From a virus (taxonomy: Duplodnaviria > Heunggongvirae > Uroviricota > Caudoviricetes): a DNA stretch of 30,712 nucleotides. The position numbers and the translations under genes are program-made. The notes under the pieces were generated by a model that was not told the DNA's origin, ran no database searches, and was given only the letters and a program-made list of their open reading frames with translations. The stretch is taken from the IMG/VR virus record IMGVR_UViG_2872698443_000006, one strand, 5' to 3'. This document shows, piece after piece, positions 6,663 through 27,374 of this stretch; within the stretch, counting starts at the first letter, position 1; each line of letters opens with the position of its first letter.

Positions 6663-7256
6663 CTATTTGTCCCGGTTGGCTAAGGGATGACACAATTTAT
6701 TCTTTGTCGCTGATGAGGGGAATTTTTTATAGAGCGTGGACAGGCCAATATCAAAAATCAGCGCCACACGTTGACGAGATTCCCCCGCAGCCAGCAACCG
6801 TCCGACCTGCTCCCACTCACTCGCGGTGAGTTTCGGACGTCTGCCACCAATACGACCTTTGGCTCTGGCCGCTTCCAGTCCGGCGCGTGTCCGCTCGACA
6901 ATGAGTTCTCGCTCCATTTCAGCCAGGGCACCCATCACATGAAAGAAAAAACGCCCCATCGGCGTGCTGGTATCAATAGCATCCGTCAGACTGCGAAAAT
7001 TAACGCCGCGTTCGCGCAGTTCCTCAACCAGAATGACCAGATGCCGCATACTACGCCCCAGCCTGTCCAGCTTCCAGACTACCAGAGTGTCACCTGCTGA
7101 TAATGTTCTGAGCAGTTTTTTCAGTCCCGGTCGGTCGGACTTCGTGCCGCTGATTTTATCCTCAAAAATCCGCTCGCATCCTGCGCACTCCAGCGCGTTA
7201 CGCTGCAATTCCGTGTTCTGGTCATTTGTTGATACGCGGACATAGCCAATAAGCAT
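6663..7256 (-). CDS. Serine recombinase, DNA invertase of the Hin/Gin/Pin/Cin family
   Basis: 197 aa, MLIGYVRVSTNDQNTELQRNAL...VVWKLDRLGRSMRHL...MGRFFFHVMGALAEMERELIVERT...IGGRRPKLT: catalytic serine context (YVRVSTNDQ) and C-terminal HTH, near-identical in pattern to E. coli Pin as I recall it. Confidence 0.9.
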   Translation of the reverse strand: MLIGYVRVSTNDQNTELQRNALECAGCERIFEDKISGTKSDRPGLKKLLRTLSAGDTLVVWKLDRLGRSMRHLVILVEELRERGVNFRSLTDAIDTSTPMGRFFFHVMGALAEMERELIVERTRAGLEAARAKGRIGGRRPKLTASEWEQVGRLLAAGESRQRVALIFDIGLSTLYKKFPSSATKNKLCHPLANRDK

Positions 7257-7311
7257 GATGGATCCCCTGAATAAAAACCGGGGATGATGCCAGTTAGCCG
7301 TAATCTCTGCA

Positions 7312-7337
7312 TTTTCTTAAACGTTGGTTTGGGAGAA
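7312..7337. repeat. Invertase crossover site, right (26 bp, hix/gix-like), core TT at 7324-7325
   Basis: TTTTCTTAAACG TT GGTTTGGGAGAA: imperfect palindrome of two 12-bp halves around a 2-bp core, resembling hix/gix (TTC..AAACC..GGTTT..GA.AA). Lies inside the alternative fibre segment reading frame. Confidence 0.7.
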
Positions 7338-7799
7338 GGTGCTCCAGCTATTGGCGTTCCGTTCTTCTGGCCGTCCGCCGCAATGCCAGATACCGTAATC
7401 GAAAGCTGGTCCGGCATGGTGTTTTTGAAGTTCAACGGCGCGAAATTCTCTGCCACTGATTACCCTGTGCTGGCGAAAGTGTTTCCTTCGCTGGTATTAC
7501 CTGAAGCCCGCGGTGATTTCATTCGTATCTGGGATGATGGTCGTGGTGTAGATAGTGGACGTGGATTACTTAGTACGCAGTCTGACCTGATGAAACAATT
7601 TACTTTGCAATACTACGGTCCTTCTGCTGGTACTGGAACAAGAACGGTTTTCGCCCTCCAGAGTAATGCGAACGGCATATATACGAGTGGTATTAGTCAG
7701 AATGATGGTAGTGGCACCGCTGCGGCTTTTAATGTACCAGGCGGCACCGAAACACGCCCACGTAACATTGCATTCAACTTTTTAGTAAGGGCTAAATAA
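7323..7799 (+). CDS. Alternative tail-fibre C-terminal (variable) segment, expressed only after inversion
   Basis: Frame open from the crossover site: ...FLNVGLGEGAPAIGVPFFWPSAAMPDTVIESW...; inversion would fuse H ...LAYL to GLGEGAP... in frame (the codons spanning the core are cTT in H and gTT here). The ATG at 7284 is probably not used. Confidence 0.65.
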   Translation, partial: VGLGEGAPAIGVPFFWPSAAMPDTVIESWSGMVFLKFNGAKFSATDYPVLAKVFPSLVLPEARGDFIRIWDDGRGVDSGRGLLSTQSDLMKQFTLQYYGPSAGTGTRTVFALQSNANGIYTSGISQNDGSGTAAAFNVPGGTETRPRNIAFNFLVRAK

Positions 7800-8392
7800 T
7801 GAAACCTGTTTTTGATAAAAATGGGCTGGCTACAGTGCCGGGTGATATGCGTTGTTTTTATTATGATGCAGTAACGTCTGAATATACTGGCTGGTCTGAT
7901 GAATATATTAATACTGGTGTAAGTATGCCCGCCTGTTCCACTGGTATTGACCCGGGCGAATACATTCCGGGGAAAGTGGCAGTATTTACGGGTAAGGGAT
8001 GGAGCCATGAAGAAGACCACCGCAATGAGACTGCTTACTCAATCGAAAATGGCGCAGCTGTTACAGTGGATTATATCGGTGCCATCAAAGACGGTTATGT
8101 CACGCTTTCACCGTTAACGCCATACGATAAATGGGATGGTGAGAAATGGGTGACAGATACTGAGGCACAGCATAGTGCCTCAGTAGACGCGGCAGAAGCA
8201 CAGCGCCAGTCGCTGATTGATGCTGCAATGGCTTCCATCAGTCTGATTCAACTGAAATTGCAGGCCGGGCGGAAGCTGACGCAGGCAGAAACAACCCGAC
8301 TTAACGCCGTGCTGGATTACATTGACGCGGTGACGGCAACAGATACCAGCACCGAGCCGGATATCATCTGGCCTGAACAGCCGGAGGCGTAG
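7799..8392 (+). CDS. Alternative tail fibre assembly protein (Tfa)
   Basis: 197 aa; C-terminus ...LNAVLDYIDAVTATDTSTEPDIIWPEQPEA shares the conserved Tfa C-terminal motif with the other tfa (..FDYLDALEMVDISSAPDIEWPTPP). ATG overlaps the TAA of the preceding segment. Confidence 0.75.
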   Translation: MKPVFDKNGLATVPGDMRCFYYDAVTSEYTGWSDEYINTGVSMPACSTGIDPGEYIPGKVAVFTGKGWSHEEDHRNETAYSIENGAAVTVDYIGAIKDGYVTLSPLTPYDKWDGEKWVTDTEAQHSASVDAAEAQRQSLIDAAMASISLIQLKLQAGRKLTQAETTRLNAVLDYIDAVTATDTSTEPDIIWPEQPEA

Positions 8393-8798
8393 GCCATTCA
8401 ATATCTGGAGCACTGGAAATATCAACCATTTCCAGTGCGTCCAGATAATCAAACCAGGCGTTCAAAAGTGCTTCTTCATCTGGCTTGATGCGTTTGAGCG
8501 CCAGTCTTGTCCGTAGCATCTCTGTTTCCGATTTCACTTCTGATATCAGAAATACTTTTTTGACTTCCGCCTGATGCACCAATTCCTCATGGGTAGGCAG
8601 AGTGACATTCACCCAGGCAGGTCGACCTTTGACACTACCGAGTTCTTTTCCTTCCGGAGCCGGTTTCATCCAGTATTTATCACGCTCTGAATCCGTCAGT
8701 TTAACGATATCGTCCGGCCATGTTCCGGCGGCGATATAGCCGTCTTTCATATCCAGAGGATAAAACGCCAACGTTGTGGCTGAGAAGCACATATCCAT
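8364..8798 (-). CDS. G: Tail fibre assembly protein (gpG-like Tfa)
   Basis: 144 aa MDMCFSATTLAFYPLD...APDIEWPTPPAVQAR; directly downstream of H; its 3' end overlaps the convergent alternative tfa by 29 nt. Confidence 0.85.
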   Translation of the reverse strand: MDMCFSATTLAFYPLDMKDGYIAAGTWPDDIVKLTDSERDKYWMKPAPEGKELGSVKGRPAWVNVTLPTHEELVHQAEVKKVFLISEVKSETEMLRTRLALKRIKPDEEALLNAWFDYLDALEMVDISSAPDIEWPTPPAVQAR

Positions 8799-8800
8799 AA

Positions 8801-10231
8801 TTAAAATCCTATCGCTAGCCAGGTGGTGGCGTTATTATCGGGAAGGAGCACTCTGTCTGATGTGTTGCTTAACACGCAAATCTGTGTGGCATTAAATCCG
8901 ACATTCGTTATAGCATTAGCTGTCCACACTGATGTCGTTTGTCCGCCGCCCGGCGAAGACTCGCCGACAAACAGTGGTGGTCTTGTGAAAGCCACCGGGA
9001 ATTTTACGTAGATATCCGTTGATGTAACCTCTGACATCCCCCACTGTATAATCATGCCGGACGGTAACTTCTGATATCCATTAGTTGACGGTGAACTACC
9101 AAAATCAGCAGGTAGCCCGCGCACCAAATCGGCATCAAGCCCTGACCCGGAACCATCAACCTGAAGCAGTTTTGTCAGTATTGCCTGCGCCGTTACCTGT
9201 TCTTCAAGAGCAAGACTTCCTCCTTTGTTTTGCAGATATACGTATTTTGCGGCACCGTCGACTTTAAAAGCGATAGCAAATTGTTTCTTCTGTTCATCAT
9301 ATGCCAGCCAAAGACTATCCTCTGGCCTGCCAGACTCAAACACGAAAGTCGAGAATCTGTTATCTGTCTTATCTCTCTTCAGGTTCAGTAATTCCGGTAA
9401 ACCAAGGTATGCGAGAAGACCGGCAACATCCTTTCCACTCAAATGAGTCAGCGTCTCATCCAGTGGCTGCTTACCTGACAGCGCATTGTTAATGGTGGTG
9501 CTGAATTTCGGGTCATTGTTAATGGCCGCGGCAATTTCTTTCAGTGTGTCCAGTGTGGCTGGCGCACCGTTAATCAGAGCGGTAATAGCGGCCTGAACAA
9601 ACTCAGTGGTCGCAATCCGCGTGGTGTTATTTCCTGCGGCAGGCGTCGGCGCTTTTGGTTCTCCGGTAAATGTCGGATTATGTTTCTGTGCATACTGGGT
9701 ATGAGGATCCTGTGCGGCAATGTGGTTTCTCATCTGGTCATCCACATACAGCCTTAATTCCAGGACTTCATCATCCACGTATTTACGGGTCGCCAGTACC
9801 ACCGACGGGTCGATTTTCAGCGTAATAGCTTCGGTATTCGTGACAACCAGAATCATGCGGATAGTCTGGGTACGACCACTGCCTTCCTGCAACTGCGGTT
9901 TGTACGTTTCCGGGCAGTTTGCCACCGCAATGAGTACGCCTTCATCATCATAAAGCCCAATCTCACGGATCCAGAATCCGCCCTCGTTCTCAGGGATGAT
10001 TTGCTCCGCAATAATCTGGCTCTGGTTATTCGGGTCAACACTCAGAAGATTCAGCGGTGCAATGCGTTTCTGGTTAATCAGTTTTGTCTGTGCCGGGTCT
10101 GGTGTCGGCAAGACACCATTCGCATCACCAACGGCCATTTGCGTCAGATTCAGCTTACTGCCGAGCATCGTCGCGTTAGCCAGCCGTGCTGCGCCCTGAT
10201 TAGTCAGAATGGCGTAGTATTTCACTGTCAT
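8801..10231 (-). CDS. H: Tail fibre protein H (constant N-terminal part plus currently expressed variable C-terminal part)
   Basis: 476 aa, MTVKYYAILTNQGAARLANA... typical P2 H N-terminus; crossover site at codons for LAYLGLPEL. Confidence 0.9.
   Translation of the reverse strand: MTVKYYAILTNQGAARLANATMLGSKLNLTQMAVGDANGVLPTPDPAQTKLINQKRIAPLNLLSVDPNNQSQIIAEQIIPENEGGFWIREIGLYDDEGVLIAVANCPETYKPQLQEGSGRTQTIRMILVVTNTEAITLKIDPSVVLATRKYVDDEVLELRLYVDDQMRNHIAAQDPHTQYAQKHNPTFTGEPKAPTPAAGNNTTRIATTEFVQAAITALINGAPATLDTLKEIAAAINNDPKFSTTINNALSGKQPLDETLTHLSGKDVAGLLAYLGLPELLNLKRDKTDNRFSTFVFESGRPEDSLWLAYDEQKKQFAIAFKVDGAAKYVYLQNKGGSLALEEQVTAQAILTKLLQVDGSGSGLDADLVRGLPADFGSSPSTNGYQKLPSGMIIQWGMSEVTSTDIYVKFPVAFTRPPLFVGESSPGGGQTTSVWTANAITNVGFNATQICVLSNTSDRVLLPDNNATTWLAIGF
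9392..9417. repeat. Invertase crossover site, left (26 bp, hix/gix-like), core AA at 9404-9405
   Basis: TTCCGGTAAACC AA GGTATGCGAGAA inside gene H; very close to my recollection of Mu gixL (TTCCTGTAAACCGAGGTTTTGGATAA). The core is the complement of the other site's core, i.e. the sites are in inverted orientation. Confidence 0.75.
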
Positions 10232-18990: not shown

Positions 18991-19163
18991 TGTCAGGAGT
19001 CCTGAATAGTGATTAGAGGAGTCACATGTCGGCATCAGTTTCCCGACGATGCGCATCCTCCGCCATCAGTCCCGGATGGCTTATCACTGACACAACAGCA
19101 CCTTAGCGAATCGCGGGACGCGACTCAGTAGCCTTGCCGTGTATTCATCACGGCGAGGTATTC
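18991..19163. promoter_or_regulatory. Divergent late promoter region (PO leftward, PP rightward), Ogr-dependent by analogy with P2
   Basis: 173-bp gap between divergent O and P starts. I looked for the P2 TGT-N12-ACA upstream element and found only partial dyads (GTCGG-N10-CCGAC at 19028-19047; ACAACA at 19089-19094), so exact promoter positions are not assigned. Confidence 0.4.
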
Positions 19164-20936
19164 ATGACCATCACCACAGACACCACTCTTTTACACGACC
19201 CGCGTCGTCAGGCGGCGCTGCTGTACTGGCAGGGGTTTTCCGTGCCGCAGATTGCCGCCATGTTGCAGATGAAACGCCCGACGGTGCAGAGCTGGAAACA
19301 GCGCGACGGCTGGGACAGCGTTGCCCCCATCAGCCGTGTCGAAATGAGTCTGGAAGCGCGGCTGACCCAGCTCATCATCAAACCGCAGAAAACCGGCGGT
19401 GACTTCAAGGAAATTGACCTGCTCGGACGCCAGATTGAACGACTGGCGCGGGTCAACCGCTACAGTCAGACCGGCAACGAGGCAGACCTTAATCCGAACG
19501 TCGCTAACCGCAACAAAGGCGGGCGTCGCAAACCGAAAAAGAATTTTTTCAGTGACGAGGCCATCGAAAAGCTGGAGCAGATTTTCTTTGAGCAGTCTTT
19601 CGAATATCAGTTGCACTGGTATCGCGCCGGACTTGAGCACCGCATCCGCGACATCCTGAAATCCCGCCAGATTGGCGCGACGTTTTATTTTTCCCGCGAG
19701 GCGCTGCTGCGCGCCCTGAAAACCGGTCATAACCAGATTTTTCTGTCGGCCAGTAAAACGCAGGCGTATGTGTTCCGCGAATACATCATCGCCTTTGCCC
19801 GTCTGGTTGACGTTGACCTGACCGGTGACCCGATTGTCCTGAGCAATAACGGCGCAAAACTGATTTTTCTCGGCACCAACTCCAACACCGCACAGAGCCA
19901 TAACGGCGACCTGTACGTCGACGAGATTTTCTGGATCCCGAATTTTCAGGTACTGCGTAAGGTGGCATCAGGTATGGCCTCACAGAGCCACCTGCGCTCG
20001 ACCTATTTCTCCACCCCGTCCACGCTGGCGCACGACGCCTATCCGTTCTGGTCGGGTGAACTGTTCAACCGGGGACGCGCCAGTGCCGCTGAACGCGTGG
20101 AAATCGACGTCAGTCATAACGCCCTTGCCGGTGGGCTTCTCTGTGCGGACGGCCAGTGGCGACAGATTGTCACCATTGAGGACGCGCTGAAAGGCGGCTG
20201 CACGCTGTTCGACATTGAGCAGCTCAAACGTGAAAACAGCGCCGACGATTTTAAAAACCTGTTCATGTGTGAATTTGTTGACGACAAGGCGTCGGTGTTC
20301 CCGTTCGAGGAGCTGCAACGCTGCATGGTCGACACGCTGGAAGAATGGGAAGACTATGCGCCGTTTGCCGCCAATCCGTTCGGCTCCCGCCCGGTATGGA
20401 TTGGTTACGACCCGTCACACCGTGGCGACAGCGCCGGATGCGTGGTGCTGGCACCGCCGGTGGTGGCCGGTGGCAAATTCAGGATCCTTGAGCGTCACCA
20501 GTGGAAAGGCATGGACTTTGCCACCCAGGCAGAATCCATCCGCAAACTCACCGAAAAATATAACGTTGAATACATCGGGATTGATGCCACCGGCCTCGGT
20601 GTCGGTGTGTTCCAGCTCGTGCGCTCGTTCTATCCCGCCGCTCGCGATATCCGCTACACGCCGGAAATGAAAACCGCAATGGTGCTCAAGGCAAAAGACG
20701 TTATCCGCCGTGGCTGTCTGGAATATGACGTCAGCGCCACCGACATCACCAGCTCGTTTATGGCTATCCGCAAGACCATGACCAGCAGCGGACGCAGCGC
20801 CACCTATGAGGCCAGCCGCAGCGAGGAAGCCAGCCACGCCGACCTCGCCTGGGCGACCATGCACGCCCTGTTAAATGAGCCACTCACCGCCGGTATCAGC
20901 ACCCCGCTGACATCCACCATTCTGGAGTTTTACTGA
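19164..20936 (+). CDS. P: Terminase large (ATPase) subunit P
   Basis: 590 aa from ATG 19164 (MTITTDTTLLHDPRRQAALLYWQGFSVPQIAAMLQ...), GAGG RBS; the ORF-track start at 19134 is a TTG extension. Confidence 0.9.
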   Translation: MTITTDTTLLHDPRRQAALLYWQGFSVPQIAAMLQMKRPTVQSWKQRDGWDSVAPISRVEMSLEARLTQLIIKPQKTGGDFKEIDLLGRQIERLARVNRYSQTGNEADLNPNVANRNKGGRRKPKKNFFSDEAIEKLEQIFFEQSFEYQLHWYRAGLEHRIRDILKSRQIGATFYFSREALLRALKTGHNQIFLSASKTQAYVFREYIIAFARLVDVDLTGDPIVLSNNGAKLIFLGTNSNTAQSHNGDLYVDEIFWIPNFQVLRKVASGMASQSHLRSTYFSTPSTLAHDAYPFWSGELFNRGRASAAERVEIDVSHNALAGGLLCADGQWRQIVTIEDALKGGCTLFDIEQLKRENSADDFKNLFMCEFVDDKASVFPFEELQRCMVDTLEEWEDYAPFAANPFGSRPVWIGYDPSHRGDSAGCVVLAPPVVAGGKFRILERHQWKGMDFATQAESIRKLTEKYNVEYIGIDATGLGVGVFQLVRSFYPAARDIRYTPEMKTAMVLKAKDVIRRGCLEYDVSATDITSSFMAIRKTMTSSGRSATYEASRSEEASHADLAWATMHALLNEPLTAGISTPLTSTILEFY

Positions 20937-21970
20937 TGAGCAAGAAAAAAGGGAAAACACCGCAACCTGCGGCAAAAACAATGACCGCCAGCGCCCCGAA
21001 AATGGAGGCATTCACCTTTGGTGAGCCGGTGCCGGTACTCGACCGCCGTGACATTCTGGATTACGTCGAGTGCATCAGTAACGGCAGATGGTATGAGCCA
21101 CCGGTCAGCTTTACCGGTCTGGCAAAAAGCCTGCGTGCTGCCGTACATCACAGCTCACCGATTTACGTCAAACGTAATATTCTGGCCTCGACATTTATCC
21201 CGCATCCGTGGCTTTCCCAGCAGGATTTCAGCCGCTTTGCGCTGGATTTTCTGGTGTTCGGTAATGCGTTTCTGGAAAAGCGTTACAGCACCACCGGTAA
21301 GGTCATCAGACTGGAAACCTCACCGGCAAAATATACCCGCCGTGGCGTGGAGGAGGATGTTTACTGGTGGGTGCCGTCCTTCAACGAGCCGACACCTTTC
21401 GCGCCCGGCTCCGTGTTTCATCTGCTGGAGCCGGATATTAATCAGGAGCTGTACGGTCTGCCGGAATATCTCAGCGCCCTTAACTCTGCCTGGCTGAATG
21501 AGTCGGCCACGCTGTTCCGCCGCAAGTATTACGAAAACGGCGCTCATGCCGGATATATCATGTACGTCACTGATGCCGTGCAGGATCGCAACGATATCGA
21601 AATGCTTCGCGAAAACATGGTCAAGTCGAAAGGCCGCAACAACTTTAAAAACCTGTTTCTCTATGCCCCGCAGGGGAAAGCTGACGGCATTAAAATTATC
21701 CCGCTCAGTGAAGTGGCAACGAAGGACGATTTTTTTAATATCAAAAAAGCCAGCGCCGCTGACCTGCTGGACGCGCACCGCATCCCCTTTCAGTTGATGG
21801 GCGGCAAGCCGGAGAACGTCGGGTCGCTGGGTGATATTGAGAAAGTGGCAAAGGTCTTTGTCCGCAATGAGCTTATCCCGTTACAGGACAGGATCCGCGA
21901 GATAAACGGCTGGCTCGGTCAGGAGGTCATCCGCTTTAAAAACTACTCACTGGACACTGACAACGGCTGA
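20936..21970 (+). CDS. Q: Portal (capsid portal vertex) protein Q
   Basis: 344 aa MSKKKGKTPQPAAKTMTASAPKMEAFTFGEPVPVLDRRDILDY...; ATG overlaps the P stop (TGATG). Confidence 0.9.
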   Translation: MSKKKGKTPQPAAKTMTASAPKMEAFTFGEPVPVLDRRDILDYVECISNGRWYEPPVSFTGLAKSLRAAVHHSSPIYVKRNILASTFIPHPWLSQQDFSRFALDFLVFGNAFLEKRYSTTGKVIRLETSPAKYTRRGVEEDVYWWVPSFNEPTPFAPGSVFHLLEPDINQELYGLPEYLSALNSAWLNESATLFRRKYYENGAHAGYIMYVTDAVQDRNDIEMLRENMVKSKGRNNFKNLFLYAPQGKADGIKIIPLSEVATKDDFFNIKKASAADLLDAHRIPFQLMGGKPENVGSLGDIEKVAKVFVRNELIPLQDRIREINGWLGQEVIRFKNYSLDTDNG

Positions 21971-21975
21971 ACATC

Positions 21976-21997
21976 GCCGCCTGCGGGCGGCTTTTTT
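21976..21997 (+). terminator. Rho-independent terminator downstream of Q
   Basis: GCCGCC-TGCG-GGCGGC stem-loop followed by TTTTTT, 6 nt after the Q stop. Confidence 0.75.
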
Positions 21998-22140
21998 ACA
22001 CCCCCGTCATCACGCCCTCACACGCTCATCACCGCACAAAAAATCCCGCAGACACACCAGCGCCCCGGCGCATAATCTAAACGCCATTACGACGCGCTGA
22101 GACGCTGAAAAAATAAAATCAGCACCACCGCCAGCGCGCA

Positions 22141-22159
22141 GTGCTTTCCCCGCCTCGCC
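22141..22159. other. cos site (19-nt cohesive end of the P2 type)
   Basis: GTGCTTTCCCCGCCTCGCC is the exact reverse complement of GGCGAGGCGGGGAAAGCAC, which I recall as the P2 cohesive-end sequence; located just beyond Q as expected. Confidence 0.8.
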
Positions 22160-22301
22160 CGCCCGCTTCATGGGTCGGTTTTAATGCAGTTGCATGAACA
22201 CGTCGAAACAGCACCAGTCCTGAACTAAAACAACCAATGTGAATGCTGCTTGCGCATGCAAATCCATGCATATTGTGTATGCATGATAACTGATTAGGTA
22301 A

Positions 22302-23000
22302 TTAATTCAGTTTTTTATACCGTGACCACCCTGATTTAACTGAGTTACGTTTAGATTCTTCCTCTATGCTTTGATACTCACTCTGTAATATTGAGAGAAA
22401 GTCTTTCCGCATCTTTAACTTGTATTGTTTCATTGCTGTTTCAATGATGAAATGCCCTTTTTTAAAGGATGGTCGACCTTCATATTTCAACCCTGACAAT
22501 AGAAATCTCAATCTAGGGTTTGACTCCATCCCAAATGCAAACTCCCACATATCGCTTATATTACATAGCGTATAAGGTATTGGCTTACCTCCCTGTTTAA
22601 GGTTATTAATCTTTAATGGTTCCTTAACATCACTAAACTTCATATAAACATTAACAATAGTACACTTCACACCGTGTAAATTTGTCACTTTGATATTAGC
22701 CAAGTCTTGCGATGAAAGCTTATCTGCTTTTTTTGCCGTAGAGGTCGTATATATAGGCGCAAAAACAACGTCAACTTTCTCTTTGCCTGACATCATCGCA
22801 TAATAACTTGTAAATAATGAAACCCCCACAGCCGCGAGAGTAGCCAATCCTGACACCCACCCTCCTAGCATTGTCCAAAATGCGACCTTGCTATTATTTT
22901 CACTCTCGCCCCATGCCCATTGAACTCCACCCAACACAAAACCAAATGCGAACATAAACAAGCAAAGACATATTATTAAAGCTATCCCACAATACTTCAT
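22302..23000 (-). CDS. Cargo gene: uncharacterised membrane-anchored protein (two N-terminal TM helices plus about 160-aa soluble domain)
   Basis: 232 aa; ATG 22998-23000 with AAGGA 9 nt upstream; TM1 IALIICLCLFMFAFGFVLGGV, TM2 FWTMLGGWVSGLATLAAVGVSLF; AT-rich codon usage unlike the rest of the prophage; no family recognised. Confidence 0.7.
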   Translation of the reverse strand: MKYCGIALIICLCLFMFAFGFVLGGVQWAWGESENNSKVAFWTMLGGWVSGLATLAAVGVSLFTSYYAMMSGKEKVDVVFAPIYTTSTAKKADKLSSQDLANIKVTNLHGVKCTIVNVYMKFSDVKEPLKINNLKQGGKPIPYTLCNISDMWEFAFGMESNPRLRFLLSGLKYEGRPSFKKGHFIIETAMKQYKLKMRKDFLSILQSEYQSIEEESKRNSVKSGWSRYKKLN

Positions 23001-23204
23001 GAAACAAATCCTTGATATAGAAAATCACAATATTTTCACACAACATTTAAACGAAATTTAAATCATCAAGCACTCTAATTACAAACAAAACAACGCACAA
23101 CACATCAAAAAAAATCATGTAAAACAAAAAAAATAGACATGCTTTAAGATCATCTTTCAATGCCACCGACACAATATCAAACTTCAGTATCGGTGGCATC
23201 ACCA

Positions 23205-23936
23205 TCAATTATTTAGTATCGAAACTATTTCACCCGTTTTCACATTAACACGCGCTGCTATTGTTTGCTTCACGACACCACCATAGGCATTAGTACCGCG
23301 AAATGTGGTTTTCACAATGGCGTGAGGGTCTTTATTCAGGATTAAATGATACACTGTTGACACATGTTTATAAGATGAATCATCGTTCATATTCTCTTTA
23401 ATTAACTTTTCCAATGGTCGATAAGAACCATCCCAACCACTAAAATTACTCTGAAATGTATCAAGGTTGATTTTATTGTTTAGTGATTGCGGATCTTTTT
23501 CATAATCATTAAAGCACCATCCAAGAACATCACCGAGTTTCAACTCATCATCTTTGGTAAAAGTATATTCACTCATGCAGGCATAAAATGCATCTGATGC
23601 GGTGACTGGCACTTCCTTAAAATCAATGTAACTATTTACAATATCGTGTCGAGTTTTCTTTGGCTCGTTCCGATATTCCTTGAGTGTTTTTCCACCATAT
23701 TCGAATGTTTTTTGGACTTGGTGTTCTGCAACGGTTGATGTTTCAGTTTTAGCAACTGGCTGGCTTTTTTCTGTTGGATAGAGTATTGAACCAATTATGC
23801 TCAATACAAAACCTCCTCCGAGATAAACCGCACTTGCACGTTTACGGTTTGGCATCCGCACCAGTGATGGTTTGATTAACCCGATGAAAAAAGCAACGAA
23901 AAAAGCGAGTGATAGAAAAGCGATTACAGTATCCAT
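23205..23936 (-). CDS. Cargo gene: uncharacterised membrane-anchored protein (two N-terminal TM helices plus about 190-aa soluble domain)
   Basis: 243 aa from ATG 23934-23936 (AAAGGA 5 nt upstream; the ORF-track start at 23960 is GTG); TM1 TVIAFLSLAFFVAFFIGLI, TM2 AVYLGGGFVLSIIGSILY; AT-rich; no family recognised. Confidence 0.7.
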   Translation of the reverse strand: MDTVIAFLSLAFFVAFFIGLIKPSLVRMPNRKRASAVYLGGGFVLSIIGSILYPTEKSQPVAKTETSTVAEHQVQKTFEYGGKTLKEYRNEPKKTRHDIVNSYIDFKEVPVTASDAFYACMSEYTFTKDDELKLGDVLGWCFNDYEKDPQSLNNKINLDTFQSNFSGWDGSYRPLEKLIKENMNDDSSYKHVSTVYHLILNKDPHAIVKTTFRGTNAYGGVVKQTIAARVNVKTGEIVSILNN

Positions 23937-24165
23937 AGCTATCCTTTTTGCATCATCCACATAAAAAATCGACCTTATGTTAGCAACAGGAAGCTTACTT
24001 TTGAATATTTGTAAGTTGTTAGCTTTAGCTCTCCGAGCTAACTCCTTTCAACCGTCAAAAACCAGCACCAACGCAGTAAAAATATTACTGTCAACTAACG
24101 CCTCGCTTCGCTCGTTGTTCAACCCCGCCAGCCCTGAAAACAAGTTTCACGACTGGCGGCGTTCT

Positions 24166-24372
24166 CTATCGTCTGCGTGGTGGTGGCATAACTCTGGATT
24201 GACCGATATGGTTAAACCGCCCGTAATTATCCCGGACTATTTCGGCACACCCGACCAGCTCGTCAGGCGTCAGATTTTCGTTAACCATAATCTGCTGTAG
24301 ACGGTGAACAATAGCCATCAGCTTGATATTTTTAGTTTTATGTTGCGGTATCTCGCCTGGTATTCTGTGCAT
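24166..24372 (-). CDS. Possible small protein (68 aa) coupled to the upstream ASCH-like gene
   Basis: ATG at 24370-24372 overlaps the TAA of the upstream gene (TAATG); no recognisable motif; could be non-coding. Confidence 0.3.
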   Translation of the reverse strand: MHRIPGEIPQHKTKNIKLMAIVHRLQQIMVNENLTPDELVGCAEIVRDNYGRFNHIGQSRVMPPPRRR

Positions 24373-24827
24373 TATCCAAGCCACCCGTTTTGCTGTGCAC
24401 GCTCCATCTGTTCATCTGAATAGTTCCATGCTCCATCCGTGGCAACCATTGCCCCGCCAGACATCCCCGTCTCTGGTTCATACATAACAGAAAGGCCGAG
24501 CTGATGCATAATTTCATGATTAATTCTGAATACCAGACCACGCTCACTAAGTTCTTTCCAGTTCACAATCTCATATGCGCCTGTATTAAGCAGCTCAATA
24601 CTTAGCAAGACATAATCTTCCAGCCAGTCTGACAGGTCAGTAACATCTGTTATCCGGGCTTCAACCTTTCGCCCCGTATACACACCCTGTACCCATTCAT
24701 GCAAAATCAACGTGTCCCCGCGCTCATAATTACGGTCATTTTTCCGAAACTCTGCGCGTTTCTTTCCTTCCAGCACAAGGTCAAAATATTTGGCGTGCAG
24801 CTTTACCTCGTGAATTTTTGCCATCAT
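24372..24827 (-). CDS. ASCH/PUA-like (DUF3850-like) domain protein with C-terminal HExxH motif
   Basis: About 151 aa from the ATG pair at 24825-24827 / 24822-24824, overlapping the A stop (ATGATGG). N-terminus KIHEVKLHAKYFDLVLEGKKRAEFRKNDRNYERGDTLILHEW fits the ASCH-like pattern as I recall it; C-terminal FRINHEIMHQLGL contains HExxH. Confidence 0.6.
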   Translation of the reverse strand: MMAKIHEVKLHAKYFDLVLEGKKRAEFRKNDRNYERGDTLILHEWVQGVYTGRKVEARITDVTDLSDWLEDYVLLSIELLNTGAYEIVNWKELSERGLVFRINHEIMHQLGLSVMYEPETGMSGGAMVATDGAWNYSDEQMERAQQNGWLG

Positions 24828-27109
24828 TTCCACTCCATTACTGTTGAGAATCCCGGCCACTCATCAGCGACCGGATACGTGAATTTTTTTCCGTCATAAT
24901 TTACGGTCGCGCCACGCGCCAGCGCCTCAAGCTCCCATCGCTGCGGCCTGATACCGTTCTGAGCAAGGTCAACGCGGATACGGGTAATTTGCATTCTTTC
25001 CGACCGGGTCAGTCTGGCCGATGGTGCAATTTCATGTAGTTTTAACGGGCTTCCGTTTCTCTGCTGACGGTTTGGCGTTCGCAGGTCGTGTTTTAATGCG
25101 CCCCTGAGCGCCCTCACGACCTCCGGTTCATTCCATTCAATAACTCCGTCATCAACCAGATTAAGCACGGCTGCGGCGTGCTCAGAAGGTGTGGGAGCCG
25201 GTAACGAAGTATCACCACCGGTGAGCTTTCCACAGTTATTGACAGGACTCCGAGGCGCGGCGATGCCGCTTTTTAAAGTCAGAGGCTCAACGACCGGAAC
25301 TTTCGGCACAATGCGCCAGTCCGTCGTTCTGGTGATATGAATATGACGCGCGCCGAGATGCGGCGCGTAAATGCCGACCACTCTCTCGACTTCTTCCTCG
25401 TACTCGTTAACTTCATCCGACGGACTACGGGCGACCCTGACAGTCTGACAATCGCGCGGGACATTTGCCCCACCCTGCGCGCTGATATACAACGCAAAAT
25501 CACCACTGTCTGCGGCGGCGCGTGCAGCCTCGACGCGCTCGTCAAACTCATCAGCAATGCTGACGCCGCGAGGCAATTTGCGTAGTTCACGGTAAGCCCC
25601 CATTGTCGGCAGACCAACCGTTTTAAATTGTGGGATGCGCCACGTTGACGCCCATGCGGTAACAGCCGCAGCAGTGTCTTTCAGCGGTCTGCCGGTATCG
25701 TTATCGAGCTGACCATCCAGTGCATAGCCATCGATGTTTTTTGAGATGTATTTCGCGATATACCCCGCAGCACCGCCCTGGTTAAGGTGTTTTGCCTGAA
25801 AACGGTTTCGCGCGGCTCCTCTTTCGTCGCCATCCTCTTTGAGCGCATAGCGACGCATGATTTCGATAATCTGGTTACGCTGGCGTGGATTACAAAAAAG
25901 CATCATATGCCAGTGCGGCGTTCCGTCGTGGTGTGGCTCGACGACACGCAAACCGTAGACCTGTAAATCATTATCCTTGAATGCCGTGCGCATCAGGCTC
26001 CAGATATGGCAGAGATAACGCTGCGCATCCTTTGGATTAAATGCCTCATCGTTCCAGCCGTGATTTAGCTGGACGGTTTTACTTTCGCCTTTTCCGACCT
26101 GACGTGTCGGGTGATACTTTGACGGCGCGGTAAGCGTGATAAACATCCCCACATCACCCTCTGCGGCGGCGTAACGCTCAATACCGGCAATGGTGTTCAT
26201 CAGCTCCATCCGGCGAATTTCAGGATTAGAAATACTGCCCATCACCTTACTGATAAGGTCGATGCGCTCGCCGGTTTCCCTGTTTTCAAGGTCACACGAT
26301 TTAAGAAATTCCAGATTTGCCTGGCGGCGTGCACGCACATCACGAATGGCATGTTTACTGGCATAAGGAGAACGGTCTTTATTCACCTCCCCGACAGCAA
26401 TCAGTAACGCCTCATGCCAGCGCATACGCTGGCCTTTGAGCTGATGAGTCCACCACTCATCGTTAAACAGACGGGCAATGGCAGAATATGCCTGCCTCGT
26501 GGTCATCTGTCCTTTACGGTATTTTTTCCAGTAAAGCGGGGAAATATTGAAAGCACGTGCAGCGCCAGCAACATGACCATAGAGGTGAGCCTGCGCCTCA
26601 TCCGTAAACAGCGATTCTTTTTCGCCATGTGCATCCACCCAGGCATCGCTGAGTTCCTCATACATCATGAAAAGCTGCGATGAGATACGGGCGGCAAACT
26701 TTTTCAGCTCCTTGTCATTCATTCCCGGCAGGCGCGCATAGTGGTCACGCTCTGCCAGAAACAGCAACGACGCGTCGGTGTTCATTTCATGGCGCTGATT
26801 CACACGCTCAATGCGCGGCCATAAACGACGCTGAAAAGTGGATGTGAGGAAATAAAACCCGTGCACCGGGCTTTTATTGCGCCGGATGTAGTCATAGCGT
26901 GAAGTAAACAGCGAGCGCAAAAAGTAAGGCAGGCGGTTAATCGTGGATAAAACACCTTGCACCTGACGCATCTCGTCACGTGTAAGGGGTCTTTCGCGCC
27001 CGACGGCCTCGCGTGGCGCGTTCCATGCATAAGCACCGGTAAACATCTTACCGGTGCCTGCGGCAAATGCTGACGGAGGGACAAAACGCCCGGAGGCTTT
27101 AACGGCCAT
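24824..27109 (-). CDS. A: Replication initiation protein A (rolling-circle nickase)
   Basis: 761 aa from ATG 27107-27109 (MAVKASGRFVPPSAFAAGTGKMF...); the ORF-track start at 27151 is a TTG extension; size and N-terminus match my recollection of P2 gpA. Confidence 0.9.
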   Translation of the reverse strand: MAVKASGRFVPPSAFAAGTGKMFTGAYAWNAPREAVGRERPLTRDEMRQVQGVLSTINRLPYFLRSLFTSRYDYIRRNKSPVHGFYFLTSTFQRRLWPRIERVNQRHEMNTDASLLFLAERDHYARLPGMNDKELKKFAARISSQLFMMYEELSDAWVDAHGEKESLFTDEAQAHLYGHVAGAARAFNISPLYWKKYRKGQMTTRQAYSAIARLFNDEWWTHQLKGQRMRWHEALLIAVGEVNKDRSPYASKHAIRDVRARRQANLEFLKSCDLENRETGERIDLISKVMGSISNPEIRRMELMNTIAGIERYAAAEGDVGMFITLTAPSKYHPTRQVGKGESKTVQLNHGWNDEAFNPKDAQRYLCHIWSLMRTAFKDNDLQVYGLRVVEPHHDGTPHWHMMLFCNPRQRNQIIEIMRRYALKEDGDERGAARNRFQAKHLNQGGAAGYIAKYISKNIDGYALDGQLDNDTGRPLKDTAAAVTAWASTWRIPQFKTVGLPTMGAYRELRKLPRGVSIADEFDERVEAARAAADSGDFALYISAQGGANVPRDCQTVRVARSPSDEVNEYEEEVERVVGIYAPHLGARHIHITRTTDWRIVPKVPVVEPLTLKSGIAAPRSPVNNCGKLTGGDTSLPAPTPSEHAAAVLNLVDDGVIEWNEPEVVRALRGALKHDLRTPNRQQRNGSPLKLHEIAPSARLTRSERMQITRIRVDLAQNGIRPQRWELEALARGATVNYDGKKFTYPVADEWPGFSTVMEWK

Positions 27110-27374
27110 ATGAGCCAAAAGCCTCTGAACAACGCTTGCTGAGTTGCTCAACCTGCACGTTTAAATCAGCAAAAGACTTTGCGCTTCCGGTCAGAATATC
27201 GTGATGCATCAGGCCTGAAACGAGCTGGCTTAATTTCGGGTAATAACCAACCACCGCCAGCCATTCCTGACCGGCGTTTTTACCGCTTTCCGCTCTCTTT
27301 TTCTCGTGGAGAATAAACTGAAAGCTGTCACTGGTAACGACATAACGTTCGCCAATTTCAATACGAATACTCAT
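27099..27374 (-). CDS. Small early protein (P2 orf83-like position), unknown function
   Basis: 91 aa, ATG 27372-27374 overlapping the upstream stop (ATGA). Confidence 0.55.
   Translation of the reverse strand: MSIRIEIGERYVVTSDSFQFILHEKKRAESGKNAGQEWLAVVGYYPKLSQLVSGLMHHDILTGSAKSFADLNVQVEQLSKRCSEAFGSYGR

Follow-up and report, generated by a model that had tools for sequence, protein, structure and literature searches.

The window analyzed here, a 30,712-nt stretch of DNA from a virus of the Caudoviricetes (IMG/VR record IMGVR_UViG_2872698443_000006), is a P2-like prophage, and ORF232, an open reading frame (ORF) for a protein of 232 amino acids (aa; positions 22302 to 23000, minus strand), occupies an exchangeable cassette beside the cohesive end (cos) in the gpA-gpQ defense hotspot of this phage group. 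ORF232 is a genuine coding sequence subject to selection, the cassette is swapped between otherwise near-identical phages, the alleles are highly diverse, and ORF232 is independent of its conserved upstream neighbor, ORF243. Whether it encodes a stand-alone anti-phage membrane protein that would act by permeabilizing the membrane, the function that we favor from its context and by analogy with known systems, appears to us evenly balanced.

ORF232 starts with ATG and is preceded, 8 nt 5' of the start codon, by the Shine-Dalgarno sequence AAGGA (positions 23009 to 23013, minus strand, read from the sequence), which bears out the initial annotation of the window, a reading of the letters that had proposed an ORF with its own ribosome binding site. 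An identical coding sequence is present in RefSeq (WP_048266361.1 of Escherichia coli AR_0081), and the gene is also annotated in the isolated phage Peduovirus P24A7b (VUD39089.1), to which the window is 99.7% identical over the ORF232 region. The product, a predicted inner-membrane protein, belongs to PHROG 16957 (E = 5.6e-52), a family of unknown function that was the sole PHROG match. Homologues formed 19 clusters in a collection of 5.8 billion proteins, and among 1.84 billion representatives scanned in full with HMMER, 130 matched at E <= 1e-3, 18 of them below 1e-30. The ratio of nonsynonymous to synonymous substitution rates (dN/dS) between pairs of diverged alleles ranged from 0.26 to 0.47 for the whole gene, and the family therefore encodes a protein under purifying selection.

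An exchangeable cassette at the cos end of the P2 hotspot

The gene order in the window is terminase (19134 to 20936), portal gene gpQ (20936 to 21970), cos, ORF232, ORF243, a 68-aa ORF, an ASCH/DUF3850 gene, and the replication gene gpA (24824 to 27151, minus strand), and all genes from ORF232 through gpA are encoded on the minus strand. The 19-nt sequence GGCGAGGCGGGGAAAGCAC (22141 to 22159, minus strand) is a P2-type cos and has been identified as the cohesive end of the P2 family (PMC3931495). It lies 143 bp past the stop codon of ORF232, and the packaged genome therefore has this gene at its terminus. The gpA-gpQ locus, which in P2 itself carries old and tin, has been described as an anti-phage hotspot with 1,650 gene arrangements in E. 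coli (Rousset et al. 2022, PMC9122126), and it was confirmed as the main P2 defense hotspot in a 2026 study (PMC13586616). ORF232 shares two properties with the cargo of this hotspot, i.e., the location between gpA and gpQ beside the cos of a P2-like phage and a slot whose content varies among otherwise near-identical phages. One of the published arrangements, 'DUF3850/ASCH + hypothetical + hypothetical + hypothetical' in Table S5 of Rousset et al., includes the 243-aa protein of the window (PMC9122126). An assignment of ORF232 to a 'three hypothetical proteins' system of these authors was rejected, as their tables contain neither the N terminus of either protein nor the motif GGWVSG and PADLOC gave no match.

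The limits of the exchanged unit were obtained by comparing positions 21500 to 24900 of the window with six other E. coli P2-like prophages. The sequences are 94 to 96% identical up to about positions 22195 to 22202 and again from about 23195 to 23230, and they share essentially no identity in between. These breakpoints, at about 22200 and 23205, are common to all six prophages, and the exchanged unit thus extends from about 22203 to 23204, a cassette of about 1.0 kb composed of ORF232 and a 204-bp leader. Its GC content is 36 to 39%, compared with 52 to 58% in the phage backbone, and the AT-rich upstream region mentioned in the initial annotation was likewise recovered (GC content of 34 to 39% over positions 22200 to 24000).

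In other prophages the slot holds either family members that are 24 to 41% identical to ORF232 or unrelated genes encoding proteins of 198, 224, 260, and 429 aa. The 44 family loci that were collected fall into 24 allele clusters at <90% identity. At least 10 alleles occur in the P2 slot, mostly 20 to 41% identical to one another, while the adjacent 243-aa protein is 80 to 96% identical. Among 5,426 complete E. coli genomes, the exact ORF232 allele of the window was found in seven, with an intact gene in every case, and the 243-aa gene was found in 84. The unrelated occupants of the slot equivalent to positions 22203 to 23204 were observed in the E. coli P2-like prophages L027, L028, L030, and L031 and encode proteins of 198, 260 (with a C-terminal transmembrane [TM] helix), 429, and 224 aa. 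None of these four proteins had a match in Pfam or PADLOC, and the genes are candidates of the same kind as ORF232; in L027, a PDC-S15 FRG-domain gene is located alongside. Furthermore, an IS5-family transposase gene was present inside the region equivalent to positions 22000 to 24400 in the two bovine E. coli isolates E94 and E92 (NZ_CP119740.1 and NZ_CP119734.1), both of which have retained ORF232 and ORF243 intact.

Predicted architecture and membrane topology

The AlphaFold model of ORF232 (mean predicted local distance difference test [pLDDT] score of 80.9) shows a TM hairpin followed by an immunoglobulin (Ig)-like beta-sandwich and a C-terminal helix. TM helix 1 (TM1) comprises residues 2 to 29 (22914 to 22997) and TM2 residues 36 to 70 (22791 to 22895), in agreement with hydropathy peaks at residues 5 to 23 and 45 to 63, and the two N-terminal hydrophobic helices of the initial annotation are thereby reproduced. 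The beta-sandwich (residues 75 to 197; 22410 to 22778), with a pLDDT score of about 90, is modeled with confidence, and the long, charged C-terminal helix extends over residues 199 to 231 (22308 to 22406; all four segments on the minus strand). Structure prediction, a check suggested together with the first description of the gene, has thus provided a domain architecture, and no functional match to the fold was obtained.

TM2, with the consensus FWxMLGGWVSGxATxAAV, is the most conserved segment of the family. Close members share 75% and distant members 45% pairwise identity in this segment, compared with 46% and 18%, respectively, for the sandwich, and the dN/dS ratio is 0.0 to 0.33 in the TM hairpin versus 0.24 to 0.71 in the remainder of the protein. 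As TM2 is more conserved than the soluble domain, it is not a passive anchor. Small residues recur in this helix at positions i and i+4 (G46, G47, S50, G51, A53, T54, A57, and S61), a spacing typical of tightly packed or pore-forming helices. TM1 is missing in about half of the distant relatives, whose only TM helix corresponds to TM2.

These shorter relatives also provide the basis for the predicted orientation in the membrane. In 58 proteins with one TM helix, the short N terminus is acidic (on average 0.62 K+R and 1.59 D+E residues), and the 15 residues past the helix are basic (3.12 K+R and 0.71 D+E), the C-terminal side being the more basic one in 88% of cases. According to the positive-inside rule, this bias corresponds to an N-out/C-in orientation and therefore places the sandwich in the cytoplasm. 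For ORF232 itself, we infer an N-in, loop-out, C-in topology. The family comparison revealed no conserved cysteines in the sandwich, which fits a cytoplasmic location. A pilin-like or otherwise periplasm-facing reading was considered and rejected on the basis of the charge bias of the one-TM relatives, given that type IV pilins are oriented N-in/C-out and have a basic leader peptide.

Defense and other roles considered for ORF232

ORF232 may be regarded as an accessory ('moron') gene on a swappable 1-kb cassette at the cos-proximal end of the gpA-gpQ hotspot, whose main task would most likely be competition with other phages. In the mechanism that we infer by analogy, the protein would reside in the inner membrane with both termini in the cytoplasm, leading from the TM hairpin through the sandwich to the C-terminal helix. 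The fast-evolving sandwich and the helix would serve as a sensor that recognizes a phage-derived cue, and the conserved, small-residue-rich TM2 would be the effector that self-associates and permeabilizes or depolarizes the inner membrane, as a pinholin or an effector of the Cap15 type from a cyclic oligonucleotide-based antiphage signaling system (CBASS) would do.

The initial annotation had already named exclusion or abortive infection as a candidate function. This proposal is strengthened by the hotspot, the swapped low-GC cassette, the deep divergence of the alleles, the defense genes next to relatives, and a machine learning prediction for an allele that is 39% identical, whereas a blocker facing the periplasm is disfavored by the predicted cytoplasmic C-terminal domain; abortive infection is thus favored over a block of injection. 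The defense genes in question are an AbiL pair and an NsnA/PD-T4-2_A-like gene, which adjoin family members in other prophages. The machine learning prediction concerns WP_175091281.1 (220 aa), an allele of the type found at locus L002, which is listed in Table S10 of DefensePredictor as a 'predicted novel defense gene' with a mean log-odds score of 6.35 and a minimum of 5.3 at a cutoff of 4 (PMC13092281). Its sole remote match was drt1b, with an HHblits probability of 65.8 over 13% of the query (PMC13092281). In the same study, 45% of the predicted units that were tested gave protection, and WP_175091281.1 is not in the searchable tables of tested units (PMC13092281). With respect to hotspots, six of eight randomly picked unknown loci from P4 protected against phages (PMC13586616).

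Several results weigh against a defensive role or against the mechanism outlined above. ORF232 had no family match in Pfam, NCBIfam, or PADLOC, a profile search of the PDB returned only a marginal match to an archaeal pilin, and no functional match was present in the PDB and BFVD. The hotspot also carries cargo unrelated to defense, namely, partition systems and toxins, e.g., cytolethal distending toxin (PMC9122126), and a motif search of the tables of Rousset et al. found neither an ORF232-like nor an ORF243-like sequence among the systems that they had cloned (PMC9122126). Positive selection in the family was rejected, as all whole-gene and per-region dN/dS ratios are below 1. The predicted topology draws solely on the positive-inside rule, a simple consensus scan detected no sigma-70 promoter in the leader, and the tight placement of relatives in lytic operons would be just as compatible with a gene that serves the lytic growth of its own phage.

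The family searches agree with the first description of the gene, in which about 160 residues behind the TM helices could not be assigned. The family hidden Markov models of PADLOC-DB 2.0 matched nothing in ORF232 and nothing relevant in 58 relatives, and scans of up to 58 relatives against Pfam, NCBIfam, and PADLOC were equally devoid of relevant matches. Matches below the threshold (tRNA_Me_trans/TrmU and isolated matches to TM regions) were discarded. A search of the full-text literature by protein accession numbers, PHROG identifiers, and phage name found no mention.

The genes around the relatives bear directly on the alternatives. In lambdoid prophages, the relative is encoded on the strand of the genes for holin, GH19 endolysin, and Rz, follows them directly, and is located just before the terminase genes, the position held by bor in lambda. 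In enterobacterial prophages of about 58 kb, it is found between the portal and scaffold genes in a stretch of variable content, and between a Mu-F-like minor head protein gene and the scaffold/major capsid genes, with conserved synteny, in siphovirus-type prophages of Pseudomonas (L093 to L096; gene at positions 7001 to 7627). Another Pseudomonas prophage carries it antisense to all of its neighbors in the early region near the integrase gene, and in a Serratia prophage the interval from gpA to the portal gene contains no ORF of notable size other than the homologue. Relatives are co-oriented and tightly spaced in the lytic operons of several phage groups, e.g., with a 4-bp gap after a DnaT_2-like gene. 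The head operon of the Pseudomonas prophages is an odd location for the gene of a membrane protein and the main reason why a role outside defense stays in play. In the P2-like loci L090 (4894 to 6645) and L034 (678 to 2461), alleles that are 38% and 28% identical to ORF232, respectively, are located about 20 to 55 bp downstream of a SocA/Panacea antitoxin gene and a gene for a protein of 191 to 192 aa, an arrangement that may represent one unit of three genes or, alternatively, a toxin-antitoxin pair that the family gene adjoins.

Superinfection exclusion at the inner membrane would differ from abortive infection in that the entry of the genome is blocked, as by T4 Imm, P22 SieA, and HK97 gp15, through an action of TM2 on a host component or on ejected conduit proteins, and in that the cell survives. 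Hotspot, cassette swapping, and allelic diversity fit this alternative just as well, the strong conservation of TM2 could reflect the binding of a conserved host membrane protein, and the co-orientation with lytic operons would provide exclusion during lytic growth, too. We nevertheless consider it unlikely, since the variable domain would, by prediction, reside in the cytoplasm, far from the first site of tails and ejection proteins, since neither sequence nor profile similarity to known exclusion proteins was detected, and since a deep diversification of the soluble domain is less expected for a conserved host target. A role in the lytic development of the phage itself, e.g., as a holin- or antiholin-like modulator of lysis timing or as a membrane anchor for replication or assembly, would account for the lambdoid homologue directly after the lysis genes, for the conserved synteny in the head-morphogenesis operon of the Pseudomonas and the ~58-kb enterobacterial prophages, and for the co-orientation of ORF232 with the early operon in the window; the predicted N-in/C-in hairpin and the glycine zipper-like TM2 would also resemble class II holins or pinholins. 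Yet the gene is absent from most P2-like phages, the allele being present in 7 of 5,426 E. coli genomes and any family member in 11 of the 54 viral contigs with ORF243, and due to this rarity it cannot be needed for P2-type growth. Moreover, there was no match to a Pfam holin family, a protein of 232 aa with a folded domain of 120 residues is unlike known holins, and the surroundings in the ~58-kb prophages are variable and include genes on the opposite strand, all of which makes a lytic-cycle role improbable.

Slightly less credence still is given to cargo for lysogenic conversion or selfish purposes that has nothing to do with other phages, e.g., a toxin or addiction module that stabilizes the prophage or a protein that modulates the physiology of the host membrane. 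Hairpin proteins of the membrane frequently act as toxins, partition systems and cytolethal distending toxin share the P2 hotspot (PMC9122126), and the two divergent alleles behind the SocA/Panacea and 191-aa genes would suit such a module, but an antitoxin-like gene is missing next to ORF232 in the window and in most other loci, no disrupted copy was seen in the seven E. coli genomes that harbor the gene, and DefensePredictor scores a relative as defensive. The least probable of the readings is a two-gene system in which ORF243 would sense the periplasm and ORF232, as the effector half, would act on the membrane. ORF243 (23205 to 23936, minus strand), a conserved protein with two TM helices that was assigned to PHROG 3403, has a periplasmic domain with an HdeA/Tai4-like fold and two invariant cysteines, which would complement a partner facing the cytoplasm; both genes are adjacent and co-oriented, and the pairing recurs in P2-like phages, including some with a gpA that is only 37% identical, and in a further locus. 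Against this stand the 43 of 54 viral contigs that contain ORF243 without a family member downstream, in some of which ORF243 is the last gene before cos, the identity of 92 to 96% that ORF243 retains where the downstream gene is replaced completely, and the relatives that occur without ORF243 in the prophages of Serratia, another enterobacterium, the lambdoid and ~58-kb groups, and Pseudomonas. A strong hairpin and the 204-bp leader lie between the two genes as well. With a family member in only 11 of 54 loci, the two-gene system was rejected, and this low co-occurrence identifies ORF243 as an independent module rather than an obligate partner.

Transcription, neighboring features, and comparison with known systems

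The AT-rich leader of ORF232 (23001 to 23204, minus strand) is part of the swapped cassette and unlike the leaders of other alleles. A 14-bp hairpin (23159 to 23200, minus strand; -23.7 kcal/mol, z score of -6.2) directly follows the stop codon of ORF243 at the right-hand junction of the cassette. The independent transcription unit proposed in the initial annotation is supported in part: the breakpoints take in both the gene and the 204-bp leader that belongs to it, and the strong hairpin follows ORF243, whereas the consensus scan was negative for a sigma-70 promoter. ORF232 presumably has its own promoter in the leader, a conclusion drawn from the structure of the cassette, and a possible extended -10 element, TGTGAAAAT, was read by eye near positions 23029 to 23037 (minus strand). 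A related long hairpin is located at about 24123 to 24163 (minus strand), and others are found at L002 (2960 to 3035) and L031 (2425 to 2490), in each case at gene or cassette junctions within the hotspot. The copies show compensatory base changes (GCCGCCAG/CTGGCGG versus GCCACCGA/TCGGTGGC), and the swapped cassette has its recombination breakpoint at the hairpin. This recurrent element could be a terminator, an insulator, or a recombination joint.

Two further regions of the window deserve mention. The annotations disagree at positions 23977 to 24384, where the phage record has a plus-strand ORF of 99 aa (the 107-aa ORF of the window, 23977 to 24300) and RefSeq an overlapping minus-strand ORF of 68 aa; no family match was found for either. 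Downstream of the tail fiber gene (8801 to 10231), the segment from 6663 to 8798 contains a resolvase/invertase gene (6663 to 7256, minus strand) beside two oppositely oriented tail fiber assembly genes (7799 to 8392, plus strand, and 8364 to 8798, minus strand), and it looks like an invertible host range segment of the Mu G or P1 C type.

Small membrane proteins are a known kind of cargo in prophage defense hotspots, and a relative of ORF232 has previously been singled out by computation; the searched releases of Pfam, NCBIfam, and PADLOC do not contain this family, whose architecture is distinctive. Its addition to the list of candidates would be in line with published work suggesting that a large share of the uncharacterized genes in P2 and P4 hotspots are defense genes (PMC13586616). 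ORF232 is of interest for the clean predicted split of its product into a TM helix that is conserved and an Ig-like cytoplasmic domain that varies. If active, the protein would be a minimal one-gene membrane defense with a built-in sensor, and the many natural alleles in an identical genetic background would represent a ready panel for determinants of phage specificity. Should it have no activity against phages, the relatives in head modules and next to lysis genes would point to a membrane function in the development of temperate phages. Only tentatively, and with more doubt than for the favored reading given above, the family may be seen as a novel type of anti-phage device in which one protein acts on the membrane: a hypervariable cytoplasmic Ig-like domain would sense a phage protein directly and release a conserved, pinholin-like TM2 that depolarizes the cell. 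Such devices would have spread on a mobile cassette among the variable slots of temperate phages from at least four unrelated lineages in Enterobacterales and Pseudomonas.

A comparison with known systems places ORF232 closest to the cargo of the old/tin hotspot in its genomic traits, i.e., the position adjacent to cos, low GC content, rapid replacement between near-identical phages, and small size, but its sequence is unrelated to Old, Tin, or any system validated by Rousset et al. (PMC9122126). T4 Imm, P22 SieA, and HK97 gp15 are likewise small inner-membrane proteins encoded in accessory positions of phages or prophages, and their activity is highly phage specific; they have no detectable homology to ORF232 and lack an Ig-like cytoplasmic domain. 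The small membrane protein drt1b of defense-associated reverse transcriptase (DRT) type 1 is the only remote match of the 220-aa allele in Table S10, but this match spans roughly one TM helix, no reverse transcriptase gene is located nearby, and ORF232 has no PADLOC match. Class II holins and pinholins such as the S protein of phage 21, to which we take TM2 and the hairpin to bear a possible resemblance, share with ORF232 the predicted N-in/C-in topology with two TM helices, a conserved TM2 core with small-xxx-small repeats, and a TM1 that is dispensable, in the ORF232 family, in about half of the relatives. In contrast to the S protein, ORF232 is three times larger, has a folded cytoplasmic domain, and is encoded outside the P2 lysis cassette. 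Membership in the holins or pinholins was rejected, since no Pfam holin matched, the gene of the window is located by cos and not by the lysis genes, and the lambdoid relatives follow Rz in the presence of a separate holin gene. The CBASS effector Cap15 consists of two N-terminal TM helices and, at its C terminus, a small beta domain through which disruption of the membrane is triggered. ORF232 is not a member of the Cap15 type, as neither a profile nor a fold match was obtained and no cyclase (CD-NTase) gene is present nearby, but in the AlphaFold model it has the same arrangement, with helices at residues 2 to 29 and 36 to 70 and the beta domain at residues 75 to 197. The two proteins thus have in common a TM hairpin, behind it a compact cytoplasmic domain of about 120 residues that is all beta, and, presumably, the gating of a membrane effector by its soluble domain.
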